Source: Verrucomicrobiota bacterium
GTDB taxonomy: Bacteria > Verrucomicrobiota > Verrucomicrobiia > Opitutales > Coraliomargaritaceae
Assembly: GCA_039815375.1 (NCBI GenBank)
Contig: JBCBZJ010000003.1
Location: forward strand, 203,512 to 267,511
Direction: 5' to 3'
Length of the DNA: 64,000 nt
Shown: piece by piece, positions 7,283 through 28,878 of the stretch
Layout: each line of letters starts with the position of its first letter
Position numbering within the stretch: position 1 is the first letter of the stretch
The notes under the pieces: generated by a model
Databases searched by the model: none
What the model was told of the DNA's origin: nothing
Seen by the model: the letters and a program-made list of their open reading frames with translations, nothing else
Program-made: the position numbers and the translations under genes

Positions 7283-7322
7283 GGAGAGATTAGTATAAAC
7301 TATACTATAGAAGTTTTGCTAA

Positions 7323-9440: not shown

Positions 9441-9488
9441 ATGTATGTTAAGCTAGGGTTTGTTTGACTTTTTGTTTTGCTGCGATCC

Positions 9489-9562
9489 TTATTGAGACGG
9501 AGTCGCGAGTTCGAGCAGCACATACAGAAAATTACAGGAGGCAAGATAATGAGTCTCAATAA
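9489..9562. promoter_or_regulatory. Two candidate Fur-type iron boxes
   Basis: GATAATGAGTCTCAATAA (9545-9562) resembles Fur consensus GATAATGATAATCATTATC; TTATTGAGAC (9489-9498) is the exact reverse complement of GTCTCAATAA (9553-9562); both lie upstream of an iron-type receptor. Confidence 0.55.
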
Positions 9563-9750
9563 CAGAAAATATTTTGCATGGCATTTCCTACGCTAATAAT
9601 TTTCGGCATATCTAGTCTGTTTGCTTTATTTATAAAACGTTAGTTTTCGAGCGTCAGAATATCCGTATTTTAGCGTGTTATGCTGAGGACTTGTCCGCAT
9701 GAAGCCCCCCGGTTGTGGATTAACCGGGCACTCGGGCTGATCGTGATTTG

Positions 9751-10311
9751 CTAGGGACGAGCGTAGAAGACCGCATTAGGCTTGTCTTTTCCGGCTTTTC
9801 CGAGGCGTCGTGCAATTTTCCAACCATCCAGTTCGAGCTCAAGACTGCCGGGCATCTCGAAGCAGATCAATCCACCCTCGGCGACGATAGGCGAGATGTG
9901 TTCTACAAAAATATCAGGAATCCGGGTCTCGATCATGGCGTAGGGCGGGTCCATGAAGATGATATCAAAAGGTCCGAGACCGCGTGGGATAGTGTAGATT
10001 TTTTGGGCCAGTAAAGGCCAGTCGTCGGAACTCGCGTTGCAGCTTTTAACCACAGCGGCGATATTCTTGCGCAGGCACGCCACTGCATCAGGGCTATTTT
10101 CGACGAATAGGCCGCCGCTTGCCCCGCGACTCATCGCTTCGAGGCCGTAGGCACCTGTGCCGGCGAAGAGATCGGCGATTCGGGCACCTTCGATACGTGA
10201 GCCAAGGGAGGAGAAGACGGCTTCGCGAAGTTGGTCTGTTGCGGGGCGTGTGCCATCGCCTTTGGGAGCGGTCAATTGAATGCCGCGAGCTTTACCTCCA
10301 GTGACTCTCAT
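9751..10311 (-). CDS. rsmD: 16S rRNA m2G966 methyltransferase
   Basis: MRVTGGKARG...TRPATDQLREAVFSSL, DLFAGTGAYGLEAMSRGA and FMDPPY motifs; start taken at ATG 10311 (ORF track extends to 10350). Confidence 0.92.
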   Translation of the reverse strand: MRVTGGKARGIQLTAPKGDGTRPATDQLREAVFSSLGSRIEGARIADLFAGTGAYGLEAMSRGASGGLFVENSPDAVACLRKNIAAVVKSCNASSDDWPLLAQKIYTIPRGLGPFDIIFMDPPYAMIETRIPDIFVEHISPIVAEGGLICFEMPGSLELELDGWKIARRLGKAGKDKPNAVFYARP

Positions 10312-10667
10312 GGCACTCCGTTCAAAGACATTTCTGAATAAAATAAACAATCAAATCCATTTTGAATGCCGAATATCTGAAAGAGGTTTCCAAACACTTT
10401 TCCCATGCGGATCGATCCGGCTTCTTTGTCGAACCGAAATTATGCCATAGGCTGAGCAACTGTGCTCCGCAAACAAAGATCATAGTTTCGAAAGCACGTT
10501 TGCATCGTTTTGGTAGAATTGGTTGTTACTATGGAAGTAGAACCAAGGTCTTTCATTTTTTGAGGCTGCACCATTGTATTTTGAGGAAATGGCTGTCTTG
10601 GAATGCCCTGTGCTATTCATCTGGTCTCGAAGCTTTGTGAGAACCGAAGCAGAATCGGACCAAGTAG

Positions 10668-12053
10668 GTGTCACTTTTTACGCGCATATTTCGGGACCCT
10701 TTCGGGTTTCAGGCTCTCGGGCAGTTCAGGTTTGGAACCTATTTTAGCTTTTTCAACGCTTTGACTTGGCTGATTGTTGTTGGTTCGCCGATGGTGCTGA
10801 TGGCCGAACATCTGGGAGCAACGGCTTTCCAGGTCGGACTTCTCTACTCGGCGGTCATGCTCTTCGTGCCTTTGCAGATGATGGCCGCGGCATTATTGCC
10901 CTACTTGGGGTACAAGCGGCAGATTGTTTTAACCTGGTCTGCGAGAACCGTCTTACTCATTATTCCGATAGCTATCGCACTGTTCGAGCCTGATGAGGCA
11001 AGGCCGCTTGCTCTTAATATCTTCATTGGAACGATCTTTGGCTACTGCTTTATCCGCTCGCTTGGAGCTTGTGCTTTGCTTCCCTGGTTTGTGGAAATTG
11101 TGCCGGAGAAGCTTCGGGGCCGTTTCTTTTCGGCCGATTCCTTCGTCATAGGCTCTGCCGGAGTGATCATACTACTCTTAAGCAGTGCCTTGTTTGCATT
11201 CTTCGAAACTTACGATGCCTTCGCACTTTTGTTCATTGGTGCGATCTGTGGTGCTGTCACCAGCATTCGATTTGTTATGAAGCTGCCTGATGGAAAGCGC
11301 CCCGAGGTTCTTTCATTTCCGAGGATGCTAAACCGATGGTCTGCTCTTCTCACTGAGCCGAGTTACTTTAGAATCTTTCTTCTCTTACAGATTGTTCACT
11401 CGCTGACGGCTTTTGGTCTTACCCCATTTACGGTCTATTATCTCAAGCGTTCACTCGATTACGGGATAAGTTATATTATGTTTTTAAGTGCACTCCAGTA
11501 TATCGGGATGTCGGTCGGTGCGCTATCGATAAAAGATCATATGGATCGATTTGGAGTGCGGCCATTCTTTGTGGTTACGCATGCCGCAGTTTTGTTTGTC
11601 ATCTTCTACTGGTGCTTGCTCGTCCTTGGATTCAAGTCTCTCTCAATGCTCTTGCCGGTGACTTTTTTTACGACAGGTATGGCGACGGCGGGATATTTTA
11701 CGGCAACTAACAAATATATGGCGAAGGTTTGCCGCCCTCGCGAACGTTCGATTGTTATCGCACTTTTTCAATCAACAGTCGGTCTCACGGCCGGGCTTGC
11801 GGCAACTGTCTGGGGTCAGATTCTTAAAGATACTTCAACGGGTGAAATTGTTGGGTCTCGTTTTCTGATTTATCTGGGAGTGTTTTCCGTGATTCAGTGC
11901 TACATGTGTTGGGGTTATTCCAGAATTCGTGAGAAAGGTCTTCCGAATCTACAAGCACAAGATGTCTCAGGCTGGAATCGTCCTTTGCGCTATTTCTTTG
12001 GCTTTGTAAATCTTGTGGAACCTCGACGGTCGAAGAAGCCGCCAACTCCTTAG
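10668..12053 (+). CDS. MFS transporter
   Basis: 461 aa, ~12 hydrophobic segments, VPEKLRGRFFS and MDRFGVRP loop motifs. Confidence 0.8.
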   Translation: MSLFTRIFRDPFGFQALGQFRFGTYFSFFNALTWLIVVGSPMVLMAEHLGATAFQVGLLYSAVMLFVPLQMMAAALLPYLGYKRQIVLTWSARTVLLIIPIAIALFEPDEARPLALNIFIGTIFGYCFIRSLGACALLPWFVEIVPEKLRGRFFSADSFVIGSAGVIILLLSSALFAFFETYDAFALLFIGAICGAVTSIRFVMKLPDGKRPEVLSFPRMLNRWSALLTEPSYFRIFLLLQIVHSLTAFGLTPFTVYYLKRSLDYGISYIMFLSALQYIGMSVGALSIKDHMDRFGVRPFFVVTHAAVLFVIFYWCLLVLGFKSLSMLLPVTFFTTGMATAGYFTATNKYMAKVCRPRERSIVIALFQSTVGLTAGLAATVWGQILKDTSTGEIVGSRFLIYLGVFSVIQCYMCWGYSRIREKGLPNLQAQDVSGWNRPLRYFFGFVNLVEPRRSKKPPTP

Positions 12054-12337
12054 TCCAAAGAGCGCCCTTGGCGTCTGGCGTAATCTTTTGGCGAGTGAGT
12101 TTTTAATGCGTTGACAGTTTCCCCAACCGTTTAATTCTCCGTGCCGTAGCCATGGTTGTTGGTTCTGGTTGTTGGTAGTCGAATCATTAACGCCTCGACG
12201 GCGACCATGAGCTACACCCCCGACCATCCTTTTTCGGCCAGCTGGATGGAAGCTTTCCTGAAGAACGGTTTTGTCAGAAAAATCCTGCTTTCCGGATTCC
12301 ATGCTTATCTGGACATTTCTCTCGAAGAAACTCCATT

Positions 12338-12353
12338 CGGCACGCTAAGCGCT
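12338..12353 (+). promoter_or_regulatory. Candidate sigma54 (-24/-12) promoter
   Basis: CGGCACGCTAAGCGCT fits GG-N10-GC; predicted start site almost abuts ATG 12366. Confidence 0.4.
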
Positions 12354-12365
12354 GCATTGAGTTGA

Positions 12366-13346
12366 ATGCGGACACTGTTGTTTTGGAACAGGGAGCTGGT
12401 AACGCGCTTTGTTGTTTTATTTTTCGTATTATCTTTTTGTAGTTCGGCTCGCGCAGTGAGATCGATCCGTTTTCAACCGGACTGGTTTCCTAATGGGCAA
12501 TTCGCTGGATTCTTTTTAGCGGCAGAAAATGGCTACTATGAAGAATACGGGTTTTCTGTAGACTTTGCCGGATTCGGATTTGGAGTCGATTTTGTGGAGG
12601 AGGTTGTTTCGAAGCGTGCGCATTTTGGAACCATTGAAAGCTACATTTTTCTTGATCGCGTTGCGAAGGGGGAACCGCTTGTTGCCATTGGAGCGGTGCT
12701 CGCGACAAGCCCTGCGGGATACATTTATTTGAAGTCTTCCGGGATCGAGGAGTTTGCCGACCTCAAAGGTCGATTGCTTGGTGTGCACAATTATGCGGAA
12801 GGGCTTGTGCAACTCTTCGAAAAAGAAGCAGGATTAACTTTCGGAGCGGTCAATTTGAAGAAGGTTGAACATGATCTATCAATCCTTCTCGACGGGCAGG
12901 TTGATGCACACCAGGGCTTTGCTATAGACGAGATGCTTAGCTTGCAAAAAAAGACTGAAGAAGCAGTCGATATTCTTTTGTTTGAGGAGCTTGGTTTGCC
13001 AATGTATTCAATGGTTATCTATACTTCGAGAGAGACCTTGGCTGAAGAGCCGGAGATTGTAGAAGGCTTTCTCGAAGCGACGGCCAAGGGCTGGTCTAAG
13101 GCAATAGATCAGCCGGAGAAAGCGGCTGTCGTTATCAGCGAAAAGCATCCGCATCCTGAAGTAAAGGACACGATCTTAGCGGAGCAGATCAAGATGATTG
13201 GCGATTTTATTAATCTTGATGCTGCGAATCCGAAAATGCGCACAGAGCTAGAGCGTTGGGAATCCATGCAAAAAGCCTTTATCCAAAGTGGCTTGCTGGC
13301 AGAACCTGTAGATTTGAATACGTGTGTCCTGAATGAAAGAGACTAG
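12366..13346 (+). CDS. NMT1/THI5-family ABC substrate-binding protein
   Basis: Signal peptide, then FQPDWFPNGQFAGFFLAAENGYYEEYG; FLEATAKGW motif. Confidence 0.88.
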   Translation: MRTLLFWNRELVTRFVVLFFVLSFCSSARAVRSIRFQPDWFPNGQFAGFFLAAENGYYEEYGFSVDFAGFGFGVDFVEEVVSKRAHFGTIESYIFLDRVAKGEPLVAIGAVLATSPAGYIYLKSSGIEEFADLKGRLLGVHNYAEGLVQLFEKEAGLTFGAVNLKKVEHDLSILLDGQVDAHQGFAIDEMLSLQKKTEEAVDILLFEELGLPMYSMVIYTSRETLAEEPEIVEGFLEATAKGWSKAIDQPEKAAVVISEKHPHPEVKDTILAEQIKMIGDFINLDAANPKMRTELERWESMQKAFIQSGLLAEPVDLNTCVLNERD

Positions 13347-13369
13347 AGGAGTTCGGAACCAAGCTGCTG

Positions 13370-14314
13370 CTAGGGAGTTTTGAGAACTGCTGTTTCTTTG
13401 AGGTAAGCAGTAATGGCATCTAGCTCCGTATCTCCGAAATCCTTGTGGCGGGGCATGATCGTATCGGGATAGACTGTCTTTGGGTCAACGATGACGGAGC
13501 GAAGGTAGGCCTCGTTGTATTGAGCATGTGTTTGAAGGATGATAAAAGGACGCTCTGCAACATTGCCACCTACACTTCCGGGCCCGAGATGGCAGGTGCT
13601 ACATCGTTGTAGAAAGATTTGCCTTCCCGATCGGGCAATCTTGCTAAGCTGATCCATCGGAGGAGCGAAGTAGGGTGCGTATCGCTCTTCCGTATTTACC
13701 GCACGTATCCCTGACATTTGTGTCGCGGAGATCATGCCGAATTTCGGTGATTCCGGATAGCTGTCGAGCTGACCGTCGATAAAGACATAAAAAGGTTCCA
13801 GCGGTTCAATGTTACCTCCGAACCACGGCCAATTCCCGTCTTTGGGGCTTTCATTATTGTAGTAGAGCAGTAGCAGTGGATTCTTCTCTTCAATGTAGCT
13901 GATCTCCATGAAACTTTCCCAGCGGTCGGTGCATTCGAGCACGAGTCCGTCGCCGTGACTTTGGAGTCCGAGCAAATTGATTAGAGACTTGAGCGGGATG
14001 ACACCAAGTTGCGCTTTGCCAGCTTTGGGAACAATCTCGGATTCAATGAGCTTGTAACCATCCAGTTTGGCGAGATCACTTCTTGTCAGATATCCGTCCT
14101 TAGATTGCCAGGCTCCCGAAAAAAATAGTGAATCCTCCGCAGGCTTTTCAGATCGAAGAGTCAATCGACTTTCGGACCCTTGTGATGATGTGCAAAATAG
14201 TAAGGCTGAAAATACGATCCACAGAGCATTCGGAGGAAAAAAAGCTCTTGCTGAACCGCGAAGAGGCTTAGTCCAGAGCGGGCTTTGCCCAAGCATATCT
14301 ATTCGCATTCGCAA
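13370..14314 (-). CDS. Exported protein: sulfite-oxidase-fold (PruR-like) domain fused to C-terminal class I cytochrome c
   Basis: Signal peptide; GRQIFLQRCSTCH heme motif with distal TIMP Met; N-domain pattern LTRSDL..L / GVIPLKSLI / ECTDRWES / LEPFYVF; paralog of 21590-22495. Confidence 0.75.
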   Translation of the reverse strand: MRMRIDMLGQSPLWTKPLRGSARAFFPPNALWIVFSALLFCTSSQGSESRLTLRSEKPAEDSLFFSGAWQSKDGYLTRSDLAKLDGYKLIESEIVPKAGKAQLGVIPLKSLINLLGLQSHGDGLVLECTDRWESFMEISYIEEKNPLLLLYYNNESPKDGNWPWFGGNIEPLEPFYVFIDGQLDSYPESPKFGMISATQMSGIRAVNTEERYAPYFAPPMDQLSKIARSGRQIFLQRCSTCHLGPGSVGGNVAERPFIILQTHAQYNEAYLRSVIVDPKTVYPDTIMPRHKDFGDTELDAITAYLKETAVLKTP

Positions 14315-14382
14315 AGACTTTCTCCTCGAAGGCTTAAAATTTTGAAGTCTGGTAGAGCCTCGATCTCGAGGTATAAAAATAA

Positions 14383-14409
14383 GGTCGGGCGACAGATTGC
14401 CGCCCGACC
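14383..14409. terminator. GC-rich hairpin, probable terminator/attenuator after the second TonB receptor gene
   Basis: GGTCGGGCG-ACAGATTGC-CGCCCGACC with T-rich tracts following on both strands. Confidence 0.65.
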
Positions 14410-14431
14410 AGTTTTTTTTAACAAACCCCGA

Positions 14432-16945
14432 CTAGAATTTGTATTTGAAGGAAAAGATGTAAGTCCGCTCGGGTGCTTTTGTGACCAGTGTATTCGCTGC
14501 GAAAACCGGATCAGAGCCGAGGAAGTAATCCTCATCCGTCAGGTTTTCGATTGAAGCGCCGATCTCCCATTTTTCAGTGGAGTACTTTGCTCCGATACCA
14601 AAAATTAGTGCATCCGGGAGTTCAATTTGATGGTCAAAATCGAGGAAAAACTCTTCCTGATAGATCATGCTTGCGGTGATCTCAAAACCGTTCTCGAAGT
14701 CGTATGCAGCGAATAGCTTGAAGACCTGCTCAGGCGTTCCGGGATAGACAAGGTCGGTGTTCTCGGGAGGAATGCCGAAATTACCGTCAACGTAACGGTC
14801 GCGACCATCAAAGCTACCAGTGCCGAAGTTGCTGTTGAGTTCTCCTCCATATAAAGCCCAGTCCGCTTCAGAGAAGGGGATTGTCCGAAACGGCAATGGA
14901 TCCAGGCGCCTTACTTCCTGGGAAGTAAAGGAACCGATAACAGTAAGCTGGTCCGTGACGAGCCAGGTAGCTTCAACTTCGATGCCATCTCCTTCGAGGG
15001 CCTCACTTGCACCGCTGCGTCCGTTGAATGCACTTTGCTCCCACTCATAGTAGGCGATTGACGCGTAGAGTTTGTTGTCCAGCAGACCTGCTTTGACCCC
15101 AACTTCCCACATTTCGTTATCAGCAAAGTTCGCTTCGCCAACGACTGCACCACCTTGGGTTGGATCCATCGATGTGCCCTCTTGATAATTGCCGTATAGG
15201 AATACCCCTTCGATCGTCTCAAGGTTGAAACCGAGACTGAAATTGATGAAATCCGTATCTCCGTCTCCGTCGTCTTCGAAGGCTATAATGTCCAGCGGAT
15301 CAACTGACTGAAGCTCTGAAGGAACATCGGCATCGAATTCTGCGATCTCACCACGAACCGATGCATTAATAGTAAGGCGATCGTCCAGAAGCTTTGATTG
15401 GCTGTTGGCGAATAAGGCATATTGCATAAGCTCGGATTCAACGTTGCCGCCGATTCCGCCGAAACCACCATCCCAGAAGTTTACTCCGTCAAGAGTGGTC
15501 TGGCCACCTGCAAGAATAATCGAGTTCGCGCTGATGATTGGTTGAGTGATGTCACGACGACTGAATGGCTCGACCCAAAAGTCCTGAAGTTGCTTCGCAT
15601 CAGTGTAGCGTAAACTTACACCTAGATTGACGGTGGTGAACGGGATCAACGTGCGCTCTGTTATGAAAGCTTTGGTCGCCAGAACGGTCTGCTCCGAGTC
15701 AAAGGCATACCCATACGAAGAAAGTTTTTCAGTTTCAAGCGACTCGGCTAAGCCCTTGATTGTAAAGATTCGATCCGAATTGGAATCGAAGACCAAATCA
15801 CCAAACAGGACGATGTTGGTCGAATCAGCGAAGTCACTTGGGTCCGTTAGCACCTCATTCCCGTCAATAGACTGCGTGACGGCCTGACCCCCGTTATCAA
15901 AATACTGTTGAGTGTAGACGTATTTTTCAACCCCGTCGGAATCCACAATGAACGCCATGTCATTGATATCGCCAAACTGAGGAACCAGTGCCTCAGCGAC
16001 TGATCTCTCGAGGGCAAGTGCTACGTCATTACTCACCTGATTCCGATCGGCAAATCCAAGATTGTTACCGTTGGTGATGTTGATCGCCTCGCCAATCACA
16101 TACTGTCCATCATCGATAAGCTCTTGTGTGGGTCGGTTCCAACCAGCGTTTTCGTTTGATTTATAATCAAAATACTCTCCGCCGACAAAAACGGACATCC
16201 CATCTTTTGGACGGAACTTCATGGATGCATAGACCGAGGTGAAATCGTTCGCAAAGTTATCGTAATAACTCTCACCGTCCTGACTCGTTATCGAAACTCG
16301 AAAGGCGGCTGGTATTTCACCCGGGAGGAGAAAAGGGGAGCCATAATCTGCAGTGACCGTCTTTCGCCCCCAGTTATCCACTTCAAGTTCGATTGAACCG
16401 GATTCTTCGTCGAAGAATGGCGACTTCGGGATCAGGTTGACAAAACCGCCAACAAGCGTCGGTGAATAATCAGCAGGCGCAGGACCTTTGACGACTTCGA
16501 TCGCCTCCAACGAACCGAATGACAAAGGCATCTCATTCCGATTAAAGGCACGAAGCATTCCGTTAAGGTAAGTGCCGCCCCTTACGCCACGAATTGTAGG
16601 TGCTCCCGGCACGCCGTAGTAGTTGATTGCCTGGGTTCCGGCGCCGATCTTCTCAAGGTCTCGAAGGTCATCAATGTTGAACTTGTCGAGGATCTCAGGT
16701 GAAAGGAGTGTGACCGAGCGCGGCACTTCAAAAACGCTTACCGAGTCCCCAAAGAGCCCGGATATCTCCCGATCTGTAGGCATCACCGTATCGACAAGCG
16801 CCGATTCGGTTTCGTTGAGGATGAAGGTTTCAAGGACGATGGTTTCATCTTCCTCGTCCGCAAGGAGCGAACTGATTCCAACGGCTGGTAGCAAGAAGAT
16901 GCATCGAAGCATCTTCGAGGTCTGTATTCGCATATTGGCTGTCAT
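14432..16945 (-). CDS. TonB-dependent receptor (non-iron substrate likely)
   Basis: 837 aa, signal peptide, plug (VPRSVTLLS, IEVVKGPAP, GGFVNLIPK), ENLTDEDYF, C-terminal YKF; embedded in NMT1/deaminase island. Confidence 0.9.
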   Translation of the reverse strand: MTANMRIQTSKMLRCIFLLPAVGISSLLADEEDETIVLETFILNETESALVDTVMPTDREISGLFGDSVSVFEVPRSVTLLSPEILDKFNIDDLRDLEKIGAGTQAINYYGVPGAPTIRGVRGGTYLNGMLRAFNRNEMPLSFGSLEAIEVVKGPAPADYSPTLVGGFVNLIPKSPFFDEESGSIELEVDNWGRKTVTADYGSPFLLPGEIPAAFRVSITSQDGESYYDNFANDFTSVYASMKFRPKDGMSVFVGGEYFDYKSNENAGWNRPTQELIDDGQYVIGEAINITNGNNLGFADRNQVSNDVALALERSVAEALVPQFGDINDMAFIVDSDGVEKYVYTQQYFDNGGQAVTQSIDGNEVLTDPSDFADSTNIVLFGDLVFDSNSDRIFTIKGLAESLETEKLSSYGYAFDSEQTVLATKAFITERTLIPFTTVNLGVSLRYTDAKQLQDFWVEPFSRRDITQPIISANSIILAGGQTTLDGVNFWDGGFGGIGGNVESELMQYALFANSQSKLLDDRLTINASVRGEIAEFDADVPSELQSVDPLDIIAFEDDGDGDTDFINFSLGFNLETIEGVFLYGNYQEGTSMDPTQGGAVVGEANFADNEMWEVGVKAGLLDNKLYASIAYYEWEQSAFNGRSGASEALEGDGIEVEATWLVTDQLTVIGSFTSQEVRRLDPLPFRTIPFSEADWALYGGELNSNFGTGSFDGRDRYVDGNFGIPPENTDLVYPGTPEQVFKLFAAYDFENGFEITASMIYQEEFFLDFDHQIELPDALIFGIGAKYSTEKWEIGASIENLTDEDYFLGSDPVFAANTLVTKAPERTYIFSFKYKF

Positions 16946-17229
16946 TGTGTTGTTGGTTCGTGGTTAGTTGTTAGTCGAATCATAAAATGGAAAGTGATTA
17001 ACGGGTGGTGATGCCTGACCGCTTGTAGATGCCTGACGACAGGCATCGCTCTAAAGGCAACAAGCGAAACACGAACCGCTGAAAAATACTCTCGAACCTC
17101 CCTGCAGTATTTTTGCAGGTGGAGAATTACTTTCAGGTTGCGAGGGAAAAGGCTCCTCGCAGCCTGAAGTCCCATTGGCGATGCGGTGGTCATTGTTGGA
17201 TCATTTTTGCGCGGCCGAGACCACGTCTC

Positions 17230-17275
17230 GGAGCAATGACCCGCACGAATTTTTCGCGCTGACTGCTTCTACTCC
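17230..17275 (-). ncRNA. NMT1-motif (xanthine-I) riboswitch-like aptamer
   Basis: Minus strand GGAGUA-GAAGC-AGUCA-GCGCGAA-AAA-UUCGUGC-GGGUCA-UUGCUCC has an outer stem, GAAGC junction and inner hairpin. It matches the layout I recall for NMT1-motif RNAs (GGAGUAGAAGC..UCAGCG..GC..AUUGCUCC). It sits at the predicted 5' end of the receptor mRNA. Confidence 0.7.
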
Positions 17276-17289
17276 TAAGCGATTAATTG

Positions 17290-17305
17290 AGCTTAAGTCG
17301 TGCCA
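17290..17305 (-). promoter_or_regulatory. sigma54 promoter for riboswitch-TonB receptor transcript
   Basis: Minus strand TGGCACGACTTAAGCT (TGGCAC-N5-AAGC, GG-N10-GC); predicted TSS ~17279, ~4 nt before the aptamer. Confidence 0.7.
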
Positions 17306-17355
17306 TTCGAGTCCTAATGGTGATTTTTTGAATAAATATCACCTGATTCACTCAA

Positions 17356-18375
17356 TCATTTCTGGAAGGAAGCATCAAATCGCGTAGGCAGGAACTTGAG
17401 TGGAGCGACTTCATCAACTGTCATTTCCTTGTCGAGAAGGCCAATTTCGCTGAGTGTGTTAATCTGGTCTTGTATCCTGCTTTCACGGATCAGTCCGGTT
17501 TCGTCGATTTGATTCCTTCCGCTGATCAACGCGTTCTCCTTCATTGCGCTCAAACTATAAGCGAGAAACTCGTCAGTCATTTTTGGATTCAACGATGCGA
17601 TTTCGGCATTCGCTTTTTCCCGAGGCCCTTTCATGTAGCTCTCCCATCCGCGGATTGATGCAGCAATGAATGCCTTTACGATCTCAGGCCGATTTGTGGC
17701 AAGCGCTCGGCTCGTGTAGATTACGCGGTAAGGATCAAAGCCTGTATCCGCAAGCAGGAGCGTCCGCGTCGGCGTGTCTTCCTTAGCCATGTAATAAGGC
17801 TCGTTTGTGATAAAGCATTGTTGGATGAACTCCGGATCGCTGATAAATCGACTCATGCCGTAGTCGAGTGGAATGACGTCGACATCAATGTCGAACTTCC
17901 GACGCAGGACATCGACAAAGACCGCTCCCGGTGTGGTCATGATCTTCTTTCCGTCGAGGTCGCCGAATTCTTTTACATCGCTGCCAGCGTGGACAAGCAG
18001 AGCTTGGGGATCGTGCTGCATAAATGAGCCGGTAATGACAAGAGGAACTCCGCGCGCCGACTGAATGATGATGTCGTCACTACGGCCGATCGCAAAGTCG
18101 GCATTCTTGCTCGCTACCTTTTGGTAGGTCATCGCGTTCGGGCCGCCCTGATTGATGGTTACGCTAAGGCCAACTTCTTCATAGTAGCCTTCGGCTACGG
18201 CTTGGTAGAAGCCACCGTGCTCGGCTTGTGCATACCAATCGGTCTGCAGAACGATCCGGGTGAGCCCATTCTCGTCGGTTGTTTGCTTCTTCCCGCAGGC
18301 AGAAAACGCGAGCAAGATAAAGAGAGCAGTCGTGGTTCGAATGAGTGCTTGGATTTTGTTTTCGAAGATCTTCAT
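17356..18375 (-). CDS. NMT1/THI5-family ABC substrate-binding lipoprotein
   Basis: Lipobox-like FSAC; LQTDWYAQAEHGGFYQAVAEGYY motif. Confidence 0.9.
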   Translation of the reverse strand: MKIFENKIQALIRTTTALFILLAFSACGKKQTTDENGLTRIVLQTDWYAQAEHGGFYQAVAEGYYEEVGLSVTINQGGPNAMTYQKVASKNADFAIGRSDDIIIQSARGVPLVITGSFMQHDPQALLVHAGSDVKEFGDLDGKKIMTTPGAVFVDVLRRKFDIDVDVIPLDYGMSRFISDPEFIQQCFITNEPYYMAKEDTPTRTLLLADTGFDPYRVIYTSRALATNRPEIVKAFIAASIRGWESYMKGPREKANAEIASLNPKMTDEFLAYSLSAMKENALISGRNQIDETGLIRESRIQDQINTLSEIGLLDKEMTVDEVAPLKFLPTRFDASFQK

Positions 18376-18392
18376 GATCGGATGCAGGATTG

Positions 18393-19214
18393 TTAGTTGA
18401 CTTCGGACTTTCGAACCGAGTCGTGCCAGTTCTTAAGAAGATACCAGTGCAACAGGTTAACACAGCCCACGAAGATGAAGCCCAAAAGGCAGGCGACAAA
18501 AGCTGTGGCAAAGAGTTCTGGAATCTTCAGTTGCGAGTTGTAAACGATGACCATGAATCCGATGCCACCAACGCCACCCTGCGAGCTACCGGCAAAAATA
18601 TCTCCGGTAATTGCACCGATTGGAGCCAGTGTTCCCGCTATCTTCATCCCGGTCAGGAAGTAGGGCATCGCGTAGGGGACGCGCAGATAGATGATCTCCT
18701 GGGATTTTGTTGCGTTACACATTTCCATCAGGTCGAGCAGGTTTCGGTCAGTTGAGACAAGTCCCATCGTGGTGTTTGCGACGACAGGAAAGAACCCGAT
18801 AAGAAATGTGATTACAGTGATACTGGGAACGCCCTGCCCGAACCAAAGCACGAAGATCGGTGCAAGAACGACTACCGGTGTCATCTGAAGAACAAGCACC
18901 CAAGGATAGAGGCTTTGCTTTACCCATACTGCTGAGGCAAGGATCATCGAGAGCACATAACCCACGACAACCGCCATCAAAAATCCCAGAACCGCAGTGA
19001 AGGCCGTCTGACTGGCAGATGCCAGAAGCACCGCTCGTTCGGCGATCAGTGCATCAAAAATCTGGTGCGGGAATGGAATGACAATGCGCTGGGTATCAAA
19101 GCCCTCCGCTTGGCCGTATGCATAGGAAATAGAATACCAAATCAGAAGAATCGCTGCGCCCGAGATGATCGGCAGCATCCAGAATTGATTATGCTTCCAG
19201 ATTTTCGTCACCAT
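18393..19214 (-). CDS. ABC transporter permease (SsuC/TauC type)
   Basis: QMTPVVVLAPIFVLWFG, FFPVVANTTMGL, LRVPYAMPYFLTGMK. Confidence 0.92.
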   Translation of the reverse strand: MVTKIWKHNQFWMLPIISGAAILLIWYSISYAYGQAEGFDTQRIVIPFPHQIFDALIAERAVLLASASQTAFTAVLGFLMAVVVGYVLSMILASAVWVKQSLYPWVLVLQMTPVVVLAPIFVLWFGQGVPSITVITFLIGFFPVVANTTMGLVSTDRNLLDLMEMCNATKSQEIIYLRVPYAMPYFLTGMKIAGTLAPIGAITGDIFAGSSQGGVGGIGFMVIVYNSQLKIPELFATAFVACLLGFIFVGCVNLLHWYLLKNWHDSVRKSEVN

Positions 19215-19217
19215 AAA

Positions 19218-19991
19218 TCAGTGCACGGTTCGAATTGCATGTGAGACTCGAGCAACGTAGTCGAGATATTCGCGTGTCTCTCGCAGCTCGGCATTGCGTT
19301 CTTGAGGCAGGTCGATTTCGATGACTTCTGAAATTCGACCCGGGTTTGCCGCGAGGACGATAATCTTCGTCGACAGGAAAACCGCTTCGGCGGCAGAGTG
19401 CGTCACAAAAAAGGCGGTCCATTGGTCGCGGGCATGTATTTTCAAAAGATCCTCGTTCAGATAATCCCGCGTCATTTCGTCCAAAGCACCAAACGGTTCG
19501 TCGAGGAGGAGGACCCGTGGCGAGAGCGTAAGAGATCTCGCGATGGAAACGCGCATCCGCATACCACCGGAAAGTTGCCAGGGGTAGCGATCGGTTGCAT
19601 GAGAGAGATTTACGAGATCGAGCATCTTTCTCGAGGTTTCAATCCTTCGGGATTTTTCGATGCCGCGAAGTTTGAGAGGCAGTTCAACGTTCCCCAGGAC
19701 ACGACGCCACGGGAGTAGGTTCGCCTCTTGAAAAATGAAGGACATTTCTTCGCGGGCATTTTTCGGAGTCATCCCATCCACCACGACATTGCCCTCAGTG
19801 ACCGAATATAGCCCGGCAATGATTTTCAAAAGCGTCGATTTGCCGCATCCACTTGGTCCAACCAAACTAATGAATGCACCTTTTTTCGCGCGGAAGTTGA
19901 TGTTATCGAGGACGGTTGTGTCGCCGAAGCGTTTTACAACGGACTCTAATTTAACCATCAGGTGGTCGGAAAATGGGCTTGGATCGCTCAC
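19218..19991 (-). CDS. ABC transporter ATP-binding protein (SsuB/TauB type)
   Basis: Walker A GPSGCGKST, LSGGMRMR, LLLDEPFGALD, FVTH. Confidence 0.95.
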   Translation of the reverse strand: MSDPSPFSDHLMVKLESVVKRFGDTTVLDNINFRAKKGAFISLVGPSGCGKSTLLKIIAGLYSVTEGNVVVDGMTPKNAREEMSFIFQEANLLPWRRVLGNVELPLKLRGIEKSRRIETSRKMLDLVNLSHATDRYPWQLSGGMRMRVSIARSLTLSPRVLLLDEPFGALDEMTRDYLNEDLLKIHARDQWTAFFVTHSAAEAVFLSTKIIVLAANPGRISEVIEIDLPQERNAELRETREYLDYVARVSHAIRTVH

Positions 19992-20060
19992 GATCTAAGA
20001 CGGACCACAACGGTCTTGTGTTCTACAACCATCTCGGTTCGTTCAATTTATATTTTCGGC

Positions 20061-21452
20061 TTAGGCGCTTGCTGCAGTCGTCGCAAACGGGTTTTTCTCG
20101 TAGGTTGCCATCTTCCCGGGATTCATGAGTGCCTTCGGGTCAACTTCATCTTTCAACGCACGCTTCTCGACAATGTCATCGTGCACACCACCTCCTTCCA
20201 TGGTGAAGGTGTGAGGATTTGCGACACCCACACCGATACTTTCGCAGTAGTCGATGATCTCATTGAGGCGCGCTTCGTTCTTATACCGGATCAAGGGAAT
20301 GCCGCCGACCGCCACACCGGTTTTCTCCTGTTTGAATTTTGAGTTTCCAAGCGTCAATTCGAGGTGCATCAAAAACTCGTCGCCGAACTTTGCCTTCAAC
20401 TTGTCGAGATTACCTTTGTAGTCCTCTCCAAATCCGCACTGGAGATAGGTCATGCTCGGATCCGCCTTGATCGCCCAAAGGGTGGTGTGGTTCCAGGTAT
20501 AGTCTGTGATAAAGGGCGGTTTGGGCGGTTCGCCAAAGGGCTTGGAAAAGACGTTTGCAATGCCCTTTTTCTCCGCCGATGCAATCACCTGCTCTGCGTC
20601 CGGCATGTCGACCATAAGAAATGAACTGTGGACGCCCTCGGGAATGTATTTCTTCAAAGGTTTGAAATAGCTCGAGATCGGATCTTCGAAAACTGTCACT
20701 AGCCGTTTTGGAATGTCCGGCTCTTCAGCAATCTCATAGCTCCAGTCGAGTAGATGATGCCAGTCATCATGGGTGAAAATCATCTGTTGCCAGGGATAGG
20801 CTTTTGCAAGACGCATCTCTGCCTCGACCATAATTCCGGTTGTGCCGTAGGTGTGAAGTGCTTTGATGCAATCACGCTCCTCCAGCTTTATGAAGCGCGG
20901 CTCTGCCTCCATAGTCATCAAAGTGACCGACTTCATATTATCCTCGTAGGCAATCCCCCCGTTTCTAATCGAACCGATTCCTCCGGAGCCTCCACATAGA
21001 AAACCACCGAACGAGCTGATTGCCCAGGTCGAAGGCATACAGCGGAGCTCCCAGCCTTTCTCTCGTGCAGCGAGTTCAATCTTACGAAGGGTTGCCCCAA
21101 CTTCAGCATGTGCCACACCATCGACATTATAAATAGTATTGAGCCCCATCAAGTCGATGACGGCACCTCCATATAGAGGAATGAGCTGTCCGTAATTACC
21201 GGAACCGCCTCCACGGAGTGTGACGGGCACCTCGTTTTTGTAGAGCAATGAAACCACACTCCTTAGTTCCTCCTTGCTTTTCACAAGTAGTGCGACCTCC
21301 GCTTTTTTCTCTTCAAGGAGCGCTTTCAGGACCGGCGAATACCAGTAGAAGTCCTTGGAATACTTCTCGGTCTTTTCTCCGGTTACAATCTGGTCTTCAG
21401 GCAATAGCTCGCCAAGTTGAGCGAGCACACTTTGGCTAATTGTTTTTGTCAT
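20061..21452 (-). CDS. FAD-binding oxidoreductase (VAO/PCMH, FAD_binding_4 family)
   Basis: RGGGSGNYGQ, GGFLCGGSGGIGS, HTYGTTGI, DPKALMNPGK; start moved to ATG 21452 because sigma54 motifs lie inside the longer ORF. Confidence 0.85.
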   Translation of the reverse strand: MTKTISQSVLAQLGELLPEDQIVTGEKTEKYSKDFYWYSPVLKALLEEKKAEVALLVKSKEELRSVVSLLYKNEVPVTLRGGGSGNYGQLIPLYGGAVIDLMGLNTIYNVDGVAHAEVGATLRKIELAAREKGWELRCMPSTWAISSFGGFLCGGSGGIGSIRNGGIAYEDNMKSVTLMTMEAEPRFIKLEERDCIKALHTYGTTGIMVEAEMRLAKAYPWQQMIFTHDDWHHLLDWSYEIAEEPDIPKRLVTVFEDPISSYFKPLKKYIPEGVHSSFLMVDMPDAEQVIASAEKKGIANVFSKPFGEPPKPPFITDYTWNHTTLWAIKADPSMTYLQCGFGEDYKGNLDKLKAKFGDEFLMHLELTLGNSKFKQEKTGVAVGGIPLIRYKNEARLNEIIDYCESIGVGVANPHTFTMEGGGVHDDIVEKRALKDEVDPKALMNPGKMATYEKNPFATTAASA

Positions 21453-21476
21453 GGTAGTCGAATCGATAAGGACATA

Positions 21477-21510
21477 AGCAGTTTTTCTGCCATTCGCAAG
21501 AGTGTGCCAA
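21477..21510 (-). promoter_or_regulatory. Tandem sigma54 promoters for oxidoreductase-ABC operon
   Basis: Minus strand TTGGCACACTCTTGCG (21495-21510, consensus) directly followed by TGGCAGAAAAACTGCT (21477-21492). Confidence 0.8.
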
Positions 21511-21561
21511 TTTGACGGCAACTCGGACGCAAGTTGTTATGATGCCAAGTCTGAACCGGAT

Positions 21562-21578
21562 TTGGTATGTCAACTGCT
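21562..21578 (+). promoter_or_regulatory. Divergent sigma54 promoter
   Basis: TTGGTATGTCAACTGCT, GG-N10-GC, upstream of the cytochrome c/SBP/deaminase genes. Confidence 0.65.
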
Positions 21579-21589
21579 AATCGTTCCGA

Positions 21590-22495
21590 GTGAAATCTTT
21601 TCGACTACCGATTTCTCAGGTCGCTGGAACCTGCTGTATTCTTTTTCATTCTGTTTCTCCGCTTCTACTTGCCGTTGCGCTTGGAGCTATGATCGCGGCG
21701 ATTACCTCGGTTAGGGCGGAAGCGGCATCGACCACAGAATCAGCAACTAGTCTGGACCTACTGGTTGAGTTCGCCGGTAGCGACCGCGAACCAATCACCA
21801 TACCTCGCGAGAAGCTCTATACAATGGGGGTGGAAAAGGTCGAAGTCATGATTCCCTACGCAGAAAAAACGGTGACCTGTACAATTCTGCCGGTTCGTAA
21901 GCTCTATGCCTATCTCGAAGTGGATCACTCGATTGCATCAGCAGCTGAAAGTTATGACGGATATTATTCAATCTACCCGACAAAATTTGTTCAGGACTAT
22001 GATCCTTATTTGGTTCTCGATTTCGACGGAGTGGAGAAAGGGAGCCTGAAGCTCGAAGGCACGCCGGAGCTTGGTCCGTTTTATATTACTTTTGCCGCTC
22101 CGCTTGTGCAGGGAAGTGATGAAATGCCGGATCCAGACAATAAGCGTCCATTTGGTGTTACAAAAATGACGCTGGGTAGCTACGACGATCTGCTTGGTTT
22201 CATGTATGAGGGTGCTTTTGCCAATCTCGATGCAGCAGCGAAATATGGAAGAGAGCTTTACACGAACAACTGCATGAGCTGCCACGCCTGGACCGCTGAA
22301 GGCCCCGGAGGAGTCTTCTCAAACCGGACCGCCCAGATTCTCTCTGTGCACGCCAAGTTCAATCGGGATTATTTTAGTAAATACATCATCAACCCGACCC
22401 AATTTATTCCCGATGTTAAAATGCCGAAACACCCGCACTATGCCGATGAAGAGATCGATGCGCTCATTGCTTTCCTTTCCAAAATTGAAATCTAG
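21590..22495 (+). CDS. Exported protein: sulfite-oxidase-fold (PruR-like) domain fused to C-terminal class I cytochrome c (paralog 2)
   Basis: GRELYTNNCMSCH and VKMP; N-domain IPREKL..M / ESYDGYYSIYP / PYLVLDFDG / LGPFYITF; start uncertain (GTG 21590 or ATG 21689). Confidence 0.75.
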   Translation: MKSFRLPISQVAGTCCILFHSVSPLLLAVALGAMIAAITSVRAEAASTTESATSLDLLVEFAGSDREPITIPREKLYTMGVEKVEVMIPYAEKTVTCTILPVRKLYAYLEVDHSIASAAESYDGYYSIYPTKFVQDYDPYLVLDFDGVEKGSLKLEGTPELGPFYITFAAPLVQGSDEMPDPDNKRPFGVTKMTLGSYDDLLGFMYEGAFANLDAAAKYGRELYTNNCMSCHAWTAEGPGGVFSNRTAQILSVHAKFNRDYFSKYIINPTQFIPDVKMPKHPHYADEEIDALIAFLSKIEI

Positions 22496-23486
22496 TCCGA
22501 AGATTTGGTTTCCTGGTGCTTTGGCCCTTGCACTCGGAATTATGCTCGGTTGTGAGACAGTCGACGAAAACGAGGAAACTGCAGGGCTTGAAATGGAAAA
22601 AGTCGTTATGCAGTTCGACTGGATTTTTAACGCGCAGTTTGCGGGTTTTTACCAGGCGGTCGAGCAGGGCTTTTTTGCAGAGGAAGAGATCGAGCTTGAA
22701 ATGCGAGGAGGGCCAACTACGCCGCATATTGTTGATGGAACCCTGAATGAGCCAGCGATCAGCTTCGGAAGCTCCGAGAGTAATGTCCTCATTGCAGAGG
22801 CTGCTATGGGTAAGGATCTAAGGATCATCGGAACGATGTTCCAGTCTTCCCCGATGGGCTGGATGTATGTTCGCGGTAACGAGATTGAGAGCTTCACTGA
22901 TCTGGCTGATAAGCGAGTGGGTGTCCATGATGACGGCTGGCGGGTCATCAAGCTCCTCCTTCAGAAGCAGGGCGTCGATATTTCCAATTTGGAGACCTTC
23001 AACTGTGACTACGATCCGAAAGTGATACTCGAAGGCGAGGCAGATGCGATGCAGTGCTATTACATTGATGAGTTCGTAAAGCTGGAGCAGATGATCGGTG
23101 AGAAGGCCGGGGTCTTTCTGGCTCGGGACTTCGGATATGATGCATTCTCACAAGTGATGTTTACACATGCCGAAACAATTGAAAAGTATCCTGAAGTTGT
23201 TGAAGGGTTTCTCCGTGCGGTAAAGAAAGGGTGGGCCCATGCTTTTGAGAATCCCGAGGAAACAGTCGATCTGATCATCTCTAAATATAGTCCTGAGCTT
23301 GATCGGGACTATCAGCTCGGTTCTCTCGCAAAGATTGAGGAACTTATGGTTCCCGATGGCGGCGAGCTTCTGCAGCCAATTGAAAGCTCTGTTCTTACCG
23401 CTGGCCAGGAGCATCTTTTGAAATACAAGCTTATTGAAGGGACAGTCGACTTCGATAAAATCCTTCAGCAACAGTTCCTGCCTTAG
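22413..23486 (+). CDS. NMT1/THI5-family ABC substrate-binding lipoprotein
   Basis: Lipobox MLGC; MQFDWIFNAQFAGFYQAVEQGFF; true start probably ~22485. Confidence 0.88.
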   Translation: MLKCRNTRTMPMKRSMRSLLSFPKLKSSPKIWFPGALALALGIMLGCETVDENEETAGLEMEKVVMQFDWIFNAQFAGFYQAVEQGFFAEEEIELEMRGGPTTPHIVDGTLNEPAISFGSSESNVLIAEAAMGKDLRIIGTMFQSSPMGWMYVRGNEIESFTDLADKRVGVHDDGWRVIKLLLQKQGVDISNLETFNCDYDPKVILEGEADAMQCYYIDEFVKLEQMIGEKAGVFLARDFGYDAFSQVMFTHAETIEKYPEVVEGFLRAVKKGWAHAFENPEETVDLIISKYSPELDRDYQLGSLAKIEELMVPDGGELLQPIESSVLTAGQEHLLKYKLIEGTVDFDKILQQQFLP

Positions 23487-23599
23487 AGAACATTCAATAA
23501 AAGCTAATTATGCTTACTCTGATTAGCGACACGTGATAATTAAAGTAACGCTTTTATCAATTTATTAGATATACTCTTAGACCTGCTTAATAGAATTCA

Positions 23600-24892
23600 G
23601 TGACAGCAACTCTATATAAGAACGCGCAAGTTCCATCTGCTTTACTCAGTATCCCTGTAGAGGGAATCGCCGAGCCATCGACGGTTTGCGATATCGTAGT
23701 AGCGGAGGGTAGGATTATAGAGATCGCGGAACCGTGTTCTGTGAATCGCACTGACGTGACAGTTGTCGACCTTGACCAGCGGATTGTTTTTCCCGGATTT
23801 CTTGATGCACATGTGCATATCGACAAGGCTTTCAGTTGGGAACGTGCGCCAAATGTCCGTGGCGAATTTTGGGATGCGATCGAACTACTGGGTAAGGACA
23901 AGGATAACTGGACTGCGGAGGATCTTTACCAGCGGGGAACCTTTGCACTGCGATGCGCCGAAGCAAATGGCACTGTTGCGATCAGGACACATGTGGACAC
24001 TTGGATAGGAGGAGGCGAGGTAAGCCATGCAGCGATGCAAACGCTGCGGGAGGAATGGTCCGGTCGCATCCAACTTCAAACTGTGAGCCTTGCCGGCATC
24101 GATCAATACATGGAGCCGGGTGGCCGACGTATGGCTGAGTTTACGATGAGTTATCCGGACTCGCTTTTGGGGGGCATGCCGCAGATGAATCCCGATCTTG
24201 ATCAGCAACTCGACTATTTCTTCGACCTTGCTGCCGAGTATGGCGCTGCGGTCGATTTGCATGTCGATGAAAACGGAAATCCGTATGCCGAATGCCTGCG
24301 CAAAGTTGCTGAAACTGTCCTCCGAAAAGAGTTTCCGCATCCGGTCACCTGCGGGCATGTGTGTAGCCTCGCCGTGCAGGATCCGGAGCGAGCGCTTTCG
24401 ACGCTGCAACTGGTCAAAGAAGCAGGTATTCAAATCATTTCCCTGCCGATGTGTAATCTCTACCTTCAAGGTCGGCCTGCGGAGTCCGGACGGCGCGGCA
24501 CACCTCGCTGGCGAGGGGTCACTCTGCTTCACGAAATGATTGAAGCTGAGATACCTTTTGCCTGTGCCAGTGATAATGTCCGCGATGCGTTCTACGCTTG
24601 GGGTGACTTTGATATGTTCGAAGTCTTTACCCAGAGTATTCGTATCGCTCATTTGGATACAGAAATGGATGCGGCGTGCCGTGCGGTGACGGCTTCGGCT
24701 GCCGATATCATGGGTCTCAAAAATTTCGGATCGATTGAGGTGGGCGCCGATGCGCGACTGGTGGCGTTCGATTCCCGCACGTTCAACGAACTTCTATCAC
24801 GACCAACTCAATCACGTCAGCTCCTGGGCTTTAATTCTGCCGCAGGCAAGAGCCCCGATTACAGCGAACTTGGTGAATTAAAGCGCGTCTGA
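23600..24892 (+). CDS. Cytosine-deaminase-family amidohydrolase (pterin deaminase-like)
   Basis: DAHVHIDK, AIRTHVD, DLHVDE, GHVCSL, ASDNVRDAFYAWGDFD, and the TPRWRGVTLLHE motif of the CodA-like subgroup that clusters with FAD oxidoreductase and creatininase genes. Confidence 0.85.
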   Translation: MTATLYKNAQVPSALLSIPVEGIAEPSTVCDIVVAEGRIIEIAEPCSVNRTDVTVVDLDQRIVFPGFLDAHVHIDKAFSWERAPNVRGEFWDAIELLGKDKDNWTAEDLYQRGTFALRCAEANGTVAIRTHVDTWIGGGEVSHAAMQTLREEWSGRIQLQTVSLAGIDQYMEPGGRRMAEFTMSYPDSLLGGMPQMNPDLDQQLDYFFDLAAEYGAAVDLHVDENGNPYAECLRKVAETVLRKEFPHPVTCGHVCSLAVQDPERALSTLQLVKEAGIQIISLPMCNLYLQGRPAESGRRGTPRWRGVTLLHEMIEAEIPFACASDNVRDAFYAWGDFDMFEVFTQSIRIAHLDTEMDAACRAVTASAADIMGLKNFGSIEVGADARLVAFDSRTFNELLSRPTQSRQLLGFNSAAGKSPDYSELGELKRV

Positions 24893-24919
24893 AGGCGTCA
24901 TCCTAACAAAAAAATAATT

Positions 24920-25426
24920 ATGATACTCATTCGACTTTCAAAAATCCTGCCCGTCCTATCGGTCGCGTTTTTCCTGTTTCTTGTCGTTCTCAACAACCTG
25001 ACGGACTACGGCTCGAACTACCTCTTCGTGGAGAACGTATTGGGTATGACGACTGTCTTCGAAGGCAACCAGCTGATGTGGCGTGCGATTGAAAGTCCTC
25101 TGGTCCATACGGCTTTCTATTTTTCGATCATCCTGTGGGAGGCGGCGGCAATGGCGCTGTGCGCATGGGGTGGATGGAAATTGCTTCAGGTCATCAAGGG
25201 CTCGAAGGCGGAATTTGAGGCTGCAAAGCAAATCGCGATCGCCGGGATTGTCTTGAGCATGCTGCAGTGGTTTGTGGCCTTCATAACGGTTGGCGGCGAG
25301 TGGTTTACGATGTGGCAGTCACAAATCTGGAACGGACAGGATGCCGCCTTCCGCATGTTTGCCTGTCTCGGGATTATACTTATCTTCCTTTATCTGCCTG
25401 AATTCGGAGAAAAGGAAGATGCTTAG
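24920..25426 (+). CDS. DUF2165-family small integral membrane protein
   Basis: NNLTDYGSNYLFVENVLGM, WRAI, GGEWFTMWQSQIWNGQDAAFR. Confidence 0.85.
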   Translation: MILIRLSKILPVLSVAFFLFLVVLNNLTDYGSNYLFVENVLGMTTVFEGNQLMWRAIESPLVHTAFYFSIILWEAAAMALCAWGGWKLLQVIKGSKAEFEAAKQIAIAGIVLSMLQWFVAFITVGGEWFTMWQSQIWNGQDAAFRMFACLGIILIFLYLPEFGEKEDA

Positions 25427-25509
25427 TCGATTTACGAGCTTTGGCCGGTTCGTCCGTAGATCTTAATAAGACGCGTGTTTTGAGTATGGGATATGCTTTG
25501 AAAAAAGAA

Positions 25510-28816: not shown

Positions 28817-28878
28817 AGTTTCCCAATTAGGGAGCACTTCAAATACCAATTCGACTATCTACTGATGAAGTGATGAAT

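Follow-up and report, generated by a model that had tools for sequence, protein, structure and literature searches.

The window analysed here, a 64,000-nucleotide (nt) stretch of a Verrucomicrobiota bacterium (Opitutales, Coraliomargaritaceae; GCA_039815375.1, contig JBCBZJ010000003.1, positions 203,512 to 267,511 of the forward strand), carries on its minus strand a xanthine/NMT1 riboswitch aptamer that lies between a sigma54-type promoter box and the gene of a TonB-dependent receptor, with a long leader separating aptamer and receptor. We hold it as practically certain that the element at 17279..17226 is a full-length member of Rfam family RF03054, as very probable that its ligand is xanthine or urate, and as likely that it controls the downstream receptor. 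That control runs in the ON direction through an open frame in the leader is a modelled outcome on which we are about evenly divided, and the same balance applies to the entire chain, in which a xanthine/urate riboswitch on a sigma54-type transcript would induce the receptor by releasing the leader start codon. The aptamer class is already known; what is new here is its host phylum, its receptor partner, its promoter type and a predicted platform, possibly of inverted sign.

Membership of the family comes from a scan of the whole window with Rfam 15 at gathering thresholds, which returned two matches, the beginning of a 16S rRNA gene at the window end and RF03054 ("Xanthine riboswitch aptamer (NMT1 RNA)"), the latter scoring 54.7 bits (E 2e-9) against a gathering score of 36 and spanning model positions 1-56 of 56 without truncation. 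An initial annotation, made from the letters alone, had described a 46-nt minus-strand element of this class in a verrucomicrobium, with an outer stem and an inner hairpin, and had named the Rfam covariance model and covariation among homologues as checks; element, host, fold and class all held. Folded alone, the 46 nt form the outer stem and inner hairpin with a minimum free energy (MFE) of -16 kcal/mol (z = -3.12), a stability reached by 0/200 dinucleotide shuffles. Across six related aptamers, standard pairs fill 91% of pair cells, two-sided changes occur at 6 pairs, and the covariation score was matched by 0/500 shuffles, with slid controls 27-50% paired; covariation is evident in P2b, and the alignment supports P1, P2a and the P2b hairpin with its internal loop, while the middle P2a position is a U-U opposition in all six of these Opitutales-type aptamers. 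The 3.56-Mb genome holds a single RF03054 copy, and a permissive Rfam scan of 9000..26000 (E up to 1) gave no second aptamer copy and no related RNA family.

The aptamer begins close to where the sigma54-type box, found by reading and by regular expression, predicts transcription to start (near 17279, about 4 nt before P1), in agreement with the placement first proposed for it. The pattern TGGCAY-N3-TT(A/T)AGCT is conserved in 5/5 loci that combine aptamer and receptor, namely the window, G032, G043, G017 and the metagenome locus L038 (hereafter the five loci), and ends 12-15 nt before P1. The genome encodes rpoN (PF04552, 197.6 bits, in a 507-amino-acid frame) and has seven PF00158 enhancer-binding-protein matches, three of them strong. 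A related box, TGGCATGGCTGTTGCT, precedes receptor orthologues of genus g12 that have no aptamer (L045-L047), and about 15 nt after it comes a C/A-rich 5' untranslated region (UTR; GATTCGACTACCAACAA...) as in the aptamer-bearing loci; GG-N10-GC boxes are also found ahead of the receptor homologue in G136, which belongs to the same order, and ahead of a second receptor-sized open frame in G043. Because the aptamer-less orthologues keep both the box and the C/A-rich UTR, the promoter appears to belong to the receptor family; a few lineages have the aptamer and a leader of ~250 nt between promoter and UTR. This UTR is conserved in the window, G032, G017, L038 and the genus g12 orthologues, and might serve to enhance translation or as a site for Rho, a protein or a small RNA.

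Two side observations belong with these elements. The UTR motif GATTCGACTAC.AACAA.CTAAACA occurs before members of the receptor family from several genera, in the window, L045-L047, L005, L007 and L038, with or without a riboswitch. The only other match to the sigma54-type pattern in the window is TGGCATACGCGGTGCT at 42893 (+).

Downstream of the box, the five loci are built alike: the aptamer lies at the predicted +1 and is followed by a hairpin, an AUG box, a leader frame of 57-84 codons and the receptor. The hairpin follows the aptamer in 5/5 loci with 5-10 base pairs (bp) and unrelated sequences; an intrinsic-terminator platform was rejected, as the hairpin has no U run and a terminator scan gave only a weak 5-bp site at 17080..17063 (-). 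The conserved box CAAUGACY (GUG in G043) starts 33-39 nt after the aptamer and is complementary to the aptamer's 3' core GGGUCAUUG, which contains the ligand-pocket residues A39 and U40. Two such boxes occur in the window: a mini-frame of 4 codons starts at the AUG of the first (17204-17202), its UGA overlapping the AUG of the second (17193-17191), and it is the second box that is the homologue of the relatives' conserved RUGAC box. Contiguous complement runs measure 8 nt in the window and 9 nt each in G032, G043, G017 and L038, starting 23-40 nt after the aptamer; the best run in 25 other aptamer loci is 5-8 nt. All substitutions in the box keep pairing by wobble (A>G opposite U, C>U opposite G), and its constant position and conservation within otherwise saturated leaders add weight to an alternative helix between box and core. 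The best run in those 25 loci often falls on the start codon, but we do not claim start-codon pairing as a class-wide feature, because an AUG alone gives three of the pairs free.

Predicted folds point the same way. G032, G043 and L038 have the alternative helix in their MFE folds, as does the window through box 1, and enforcing the aptamer costs 4-9 kcal/mol of stability. Ensembles were calculated with three different 3' limits; the probability that the AUG box is unpaired, for the free RNA and for the locked aptamer respectively, was 0.10-0.12 and 0.48-0.63 in G032, 0.12-0.28 and 0.48-0.64 in G043, 0.16-0.35 and 0.63-0.65 in G017, and 0.22-0.28 and 0.84-0.89 in L038. For the window, the 9-nt region of the second box gave 0.62-0.67 free and 0.70-0.75 locked, AUG1 stood at 0.01-0.21 free and 0.40-0.93 locked, and for the U and G of AUG2 the values were 0.18-0.47 and 0.46-0.72. 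The models thus agree in direction in 5/5 loci, predicting that the start codon is exposed in the ligand-bound state, with the window as the weakest case.

A frame is open from the homologous AUG or GUG in all five loci, with 83, 80, 84, 68 and 57 codons (the window first), lengths that were reached, in the same order, by 247, 125, 66, 147 and 522 of 5000 dinucleotide shuffles of 300 nt. Where the receptor start was located (four loci), each of the two remaining spacer frames contains 2-6 stops. The leaders are 46-53% identical pairwise, and the window's leader peptide has no Pfam or NCBIfam match; the kept feature seems to be translation of the frame and not the peptide product. A Shine-Dalgarno-like motif precedes only 3/24 window genes, and since this organism is mostly without such sites, the start codon is a sensible target; a platform that hides the start codon rather than a Shine-Dalgarno sequence suits it.

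We therefore propose, as a working model, a device with two conditions. Transcription would proceed from the sigma54-type promoter, where an enhancer-binding protein would set the first condition, plausibly nitrogen limitation. Without ligand, the 3' core would pair with the AUG box ~25-40 nt downstream and hide the leader start codon or codons; with xanthine or urate bound, the core would be held in the aptamer, the AUG box would be free, and the 83-codon leader could be translated up to the receptor ATG. Leader translation would then permit receptor expression, either through coupling or by protecting the C-rich leader from Rho, whose RNA-binding domain is encoded in the genome, and the receptor would import an oxidised purine through the outer membrane, to serve the NMT1-type ABC importer and the products of the deaminase/amidohydrolase genes nearby.

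The strongest alternative keeps the same aptamer and ligand but makes the device an OFF switch: excess intracellular xanthine or urate would shut down uptake, the C-rich segment freed on binding would act as a Rho loading site or an expression-lowering fold, the long frame would go untranslated, and the AUG would be merely the complement of the core's CAU. We regard this as unlikely, though well above negligible. Of the observations in its favour, the published reporter result, the unconserved leader peptides and the forced AUG also count against induction through the leader. The sole published genetic test of the class described in the main text of PMC7373994, a Hydrogenophaga reporter in E. 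coli, behaved as an OFF switch, for which its authors propose that the ribosome-binding site (RBS) is sequestered, and a feedback rationale fits that result. Close to the receptor start the leader is rich in C and A and poor in G, the genome encodes a Rho RNA-binding domain, the leader peptides are unconserved, sharing Met-Thr only, and any complement of the aptamer's CAU is necessarily AUG, so that the start codon could be a forced by-product of complementarity. Set against this OFF device are the frame of 57-84 codons, open from a homologous start in 5/5 highly diverged leaders, and the leader stop, which overlaps or abuts the receptor ATG in 2/5 (overlapping as ATGA in the window, 1 nt before it in G043). 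All folds, moreover, predict a start codon hidden without ligand and exposed with it; they free the start codon when the aptamer is locked, a departure from the published OFF logic that concerns the platform and not the aptamer. The C/A-rich UTR, finally, is not a switch-specific Rho site, because orthologues without the riboswitch carry the same UTR.

Further points reduce the weight that induction can bear. Taken singly, each leader frame is reached by 1-10% of shuffles and each complement run by 99-744 of 5000 dinucleotide shuffles (2-15%), and the five loci, being related, fall short of full independence. On its aptamer side the alternative helix does not vary, which leaves no genuine compensatory changes on both strands. 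The window's own region around the AUG of the long frame barely shifts, and the effect there is clear only for the mini-frame AUG. Tight coupling between leader and receptor is not general, because the position of the leader stop varies: in G032 it lies 64 nt inside the receptor gene, and in G017 and L038 it lies 45 and 74 nt upstream of the ATG. As for the promoter, a PF00158 search found no enhancer-binding-protein gene on the window's contig, a search for an activator site found no 7-mer common to more than 4/7 upstream regions, and the -12 element of the aptamer-bearing loci reads AAGC or TAGC, whereas the sigma54 consensus at this position is TTGC.

The initial annotation had also suggested a variant that senses a lumazine or pterin, and a specificity variant for some other heterocycle (lumazine, pterin, 8-oxoguanine or similar) would have two things to commend it: an A at crystal position G12 and a U-U in P2a in all six Opitutales-type aptamers, and a neighbourhood with a cytosine-deaminase-type protein and an 8-oxoguanine-deaminase-like amidohydrolase without proven substrate. 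We consider it very unlikely. In crystal numbering, for which we mapped the Rfam alignment by our own reading onto the structure as described in PMC8266621, the pocket residues A6, G7, A8, A9, G10, C11, G35, A39, U40 and U41 are all present, the A6-U41 pair and the U5-G42 wobble are kept, and every residue that touches xanthine or its Mg ions is unchanged. The two deviations from the Rfam consensus are GAAGC-A-GU for GAAGC-G-GU (A at position G12) and GGG-U-CAU for GGG-A-CAU (the middle P2a position, A>U, giving the U-U opposition). The text of Xu et al. 2021 (PMC8266621) gives only a 7-fold weaker binding of xanthine for G12A and calls the position "not highly conserved", and the bit score of the window's aptamer is as high as that of typical members. 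An exact-pattern search for the GGGUCAUU form across 185,579 species genomes found at least 28 loci; 21 of the 28 listed carry proteobacterial record titles (e.g., Pantoea, Citrobacter, Hoeflea, Ensifer, Burkholderiales), and a stricter regular expression recovered the aptamer in 25 of these 28. Among those 25, the first long downstream gene encodes a 2-oxoglutarate (2OG)-Fe(II) dioxygenase in 18, NMT1 in 3, a TonB-dependent receptor in 3 (all verrucomicrobial) and an unassigned product in 1, and both GCAGU and GCUGU occur. Because both deviating letters are found in proteobacterial-titled aptamers before the usual dioxygenase or NMT1 genes, comparison of these sequences places them as ordinary within-class variation, and the suggestion of a lumazine or pterin sensor finds no support: the aptamer itself is ordinary, and nothing points to a new ligand.

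Alone of all the elements seen, the G136 aptamer (L009:8459-8511, minus strand), which scores only 37 bits, might be an affinity or specificity variant. It has GUACAAGC in place of GUAGAAGC, that is, a C at crystal position G7, and a U-A pair replaces the U5-G42 wobble; in the text of Xu et al. a G7A-A8G double mutant loses binding (PMC8266621). The operon that follows this aptamer has 2OG dioxygenase, NMT1 and ABC genes; two Xan_ur_permease genes lie in the vicinity, and a receptor homologue (25% identity over full length, E 1e-60) is just upstream.

That the aptamer does not control the receptor at all, being a 3' element that belongs to the NMT1/ABC operon upstream of it or a relic without activity, could draw on its closeness to the NMT1-type gene, whose stop is only 76 nt away, on the lack of any predicted minus-strand terminator-like site between that gene and the aptamer, and on the ~280 nt from aptamer to receptor ATG, but we think this very improbable given a conserved promoter box that places the aptamer at the 5' end of its own transcript, a core that is invariant while its flanks are saturated, a conserved AUG box, and the recurrence of the unit before a receptor in L038 and G043.

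The receptor reading of the initial annotation is borne out, in that the next real gene after the aptamer carries a Plug domain; its match to the NCBIfam TonB-siderophore subfamily is partial and below cut-off, and its orthologues are 72% (G032) and 62% (genus g12) identical. The order of oxidase, ABC genes, NMT1 gene, aptamer and receptor (Table 1) recurs in G032 and G017; the unit of aptamer, leader and receptor is seen in G043 and L038. The gene context is not far removed from the usual regulon of the class, because the gene directly upstream in this cluster encodes an NMT1-type binding protein. After the receptor, in minus-strand order, comes a gene for a c-type cytochrome protein, and two further NMT1-type binding proteins, two amidohydrolases, a DUF2165 protein, MFS transporters and a creatininase-family protein are encoded within 10 kb; the cluster looks like a nucleobase or N-heterocycle scavenging island.

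Table 1. Elements of the riboswitch unit and its flanking operon in the window (position 1 is the first letter of the window)
Feature	Position	Strand	Remarks
Sigma54-type -24/-12 box TGGCACGACTTAAGCT	17290..17305	-	GG-N10-GC; GG 17304-17303, GC 17292-17291
Xanthine/NMT1 aptamer (RF03054)	17226..17279	-	covariance-model match, covariation, fold z-score
Aptamer core (46-nt element)	17275..17230	-	P1 = 17275-17270 with 17235-17230
J1 GAAGC	17269-17265	-	within the aptamer core
Aptamer 3' core GGGUCAUUG	17242-17234	-	
Hairpin CCGAGAC-GUG-GUCUCGG	17215..17231	-	directly after the aptamer, sharing the last two C of P1
AUG box 1 AAAUGAUCC	17198..17206	-	complementary to GGGUCAUU of the aptamer core
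AUG box 2 CAAUGACC	17188..17195	-	8-nt Watson-Crick complement of GGUCAUUG in the aptamer core
Leader open frame	16942..17193	-	83 codons; stop overlaps receptor ATG (ATGA)
C/A-rich, G-poor 5' UTR GATTCGACTAACAACTAACC...	16946..16981	-	directly before the receptor start codon
FAD_binding_4 oxidase	21521..20061	-	Pfam/NCBIfam
ABC ATPase	19991..19218	-	Pfam/NCBIfam
ABC permease	19214..18393	-	Pfam/NCBIfam
NMT1-type substrate-binding protein	18375..17356	-	Pfam/NCBIfam
TonB-dependent receptor	14432..16945	-	837 amino acids; Pfam Plug 34.1 bits, cut-off 23.9

The NMT1-type binding-protein genes of the cluster lie at 12366-13346 (+), 17356-18375 (-) and 22413-23486 (+), and two proteins of ~300 amino acids with a C-terminal cytochrome c domain are encoded at 13370-14314 (-) and 21590-22495 (+); with these flanking the FAD_binding_4 oxidase, the genes may form a flavocytochrome-type system that oxidises an imported heterocycle. 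The amidohydrolases are a cytosine-deaminase-type enzyme at 23600-24892 (+; NF005759, 482.5 bits against a cut-off of 403) and an 8-oxoguanine-deaminase/TRZ-ATZ-like protein at 25441-26967 (+), the latter below cut-offs, and a creatininase-family protein follows at 28884-29714 (+). Elsewhere in the window, a second, canonical TonB-dependent receptor without relation to the riboswitch unit is encoded at 7323-9440 (-; beta-barrel 193 bits, Plug 63 bits), a bacterial 16S rRNA gene, cut by the window end, is represented by its 5' two-thirds at 62960-64000 (+; 987 bits), and an open frame of at least 1768 amino acids at 3-5306 (-) runs off the window start.

The class was described from 649 representatives as "found exclusively in Proteobacteria", and TonB is absent from the main text of that description (Yu & Breaker 2020, PMC7373994), so the initial proposal that the window extends the class to another phylum and gene type is upheld. 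Our literature searches found nothing joining a xanthine riboswitch with Verrucomicrobia or with TonB, and among the papers listed by a broader search (TonB, xanthine, purine catabolism, sigma-54) none was relevant by title or abstract. Within its phylum the aptamer is rare. Counting the window genome each time, in samples that overlap and whose counts are not additive, it was found in 4/101 nearest relatives (0/8 of the same genus, 3/3 of genus g10), 4/101 genomes of the same family (3/100 others), 2/151 of the same order, where the other is G136, and 1/151 of a phylum sample, the window genome only; searches of more than 40 genomes ran with Infernal's stricter filters. No aptamer was detected at E up to 1 before the receptor orthologues of other genera (L045-L047, L050-L054). 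Content of G and C is 0.46-0.55 over 1..40000 without a step at the cluster, and thus gives no compositional sign of recent transfer.

Candidate occurrences in further phyla were also considered. Pattern matches in Armatimonadota (L020) and Chloroflexota (L030) were rejected, as neither has an Rfam match at E up to 1. A record titled Chryseobacterium (L036) holds two divergent xanthine aptamers (3199-3249, minus strand, and 3490-3544, plus strand; 55.4 and 50.9 bits), and because their leader and start context are the same as in Scandinavium/Citrobacter-type loci (e.g., L024), this suggests an enterobacterial contig within that assembly and not a Bacteroidota riboswitch. Among environmental sequences, a 373-nt marine metagenome contig (run X2, record 1) aligns only over the aptamer (17208-17276, 6 differences); its unaligned ends show a TGGCACGGCATAAGCT-type box on the upstream side and, on the downstream side, boxes reading AUGAUCC and UAUGACU, and it is probably a sixth locus of the same architecture. 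Contigs of four DNA runs cover 16850..17420 in fragments, without indels.

A clean member in marine Verrucomicrobiota widens the range of a class described as proteobacterial with a single OFF logic, and offers a natural test in which the same aptamer may be wired for induction in an organism where Shine-Dalgarno sites are hardly used. It also suggests what an orphan receptor family, and the NMT1-type importer/deaminase cluster with it, might take as substrate, namely xanthine, urate or a close oxidised purine, with a bearing on nitrogen scavenging from purines by marine heterotrophs. If the ON device is real, it would give this orphan TonB-dependent receptor family its first substrate assignment, to xanthine/urate-type oxidised purines, and the two-input gate would combine the activator's signal, plausibly nitrogen limitation, with the presence of purine. 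The fullest form of this proposal is that Opitutales have rebuilt the riboswitch as a ligand-ON, Shine-Dalgarno-independent AND gate with two inputs, in which the core serves as the anti-start-codon strand, leader translation licenses sigma54-driven receptor expression, and the receptor's substrate is thereby first assigned; we offer it tentatively, as possible rather than probable.

Known systems provide precedents for parts of this arrangement. Riboswitches that act on translation through a leader or Rho, such as the Mg2+-responsive mgtA leader with mgtL and the ribB riboswitch for flavin mononucleotide (FMN), likewise have a sensor far from the gene and a leader frame in between whose translation would decide continuation, while here the step from leader translation to receptor expression is only proposed. 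NtrC-type nitrogen-scavenging promoters depend on sigma54 (RpoN), and the window likewise has a GG-N10-GC box at a fitting distance, in a genome that encodes rpoN and enhancer-binding proteins, before an uptake system for a presumed nitrogen-rich substrate; the window's promoter differs in its AAGC/TAGC -12 element, and neither an activator gene on its contig nor, by 7-mer search, an upstream activator site was identified. Compared with the xanthine-I/NMT1 class itself (RF03054), as it is set out in the texts of PMC7373994 and PMC8266621, the window's aptamer has the same P1, P2a, P2b, J1 GAAGC and 3' GGG.CAUUG core, with the same ligand and Mg contacts, likewise has no intrinsic terminator, and is likewise clustered with an NMT1-type ABC importer and purine-type deaminases. 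The published class is confined to Proteobacteria in that description, with pcbC-type dioxygenase, NMT1, tauA, tsx and deaminase genes as its associations and no TonB receptor among those listed (PMC7373994), whereas here the host is a member of Opitutales/Verrucomicrobiota and the partner, in place of dioxygenase, NMT1 or tauA, is a TonB-dependent receptor. Unlike the published members, the window's aptamer stands behind a sigma54-type promoter and ~280 nt from its gene with a leader frame between, and where the published example is OFF, with RBS sequestration proposed, this one is predicted to be ON by release of a start codon.

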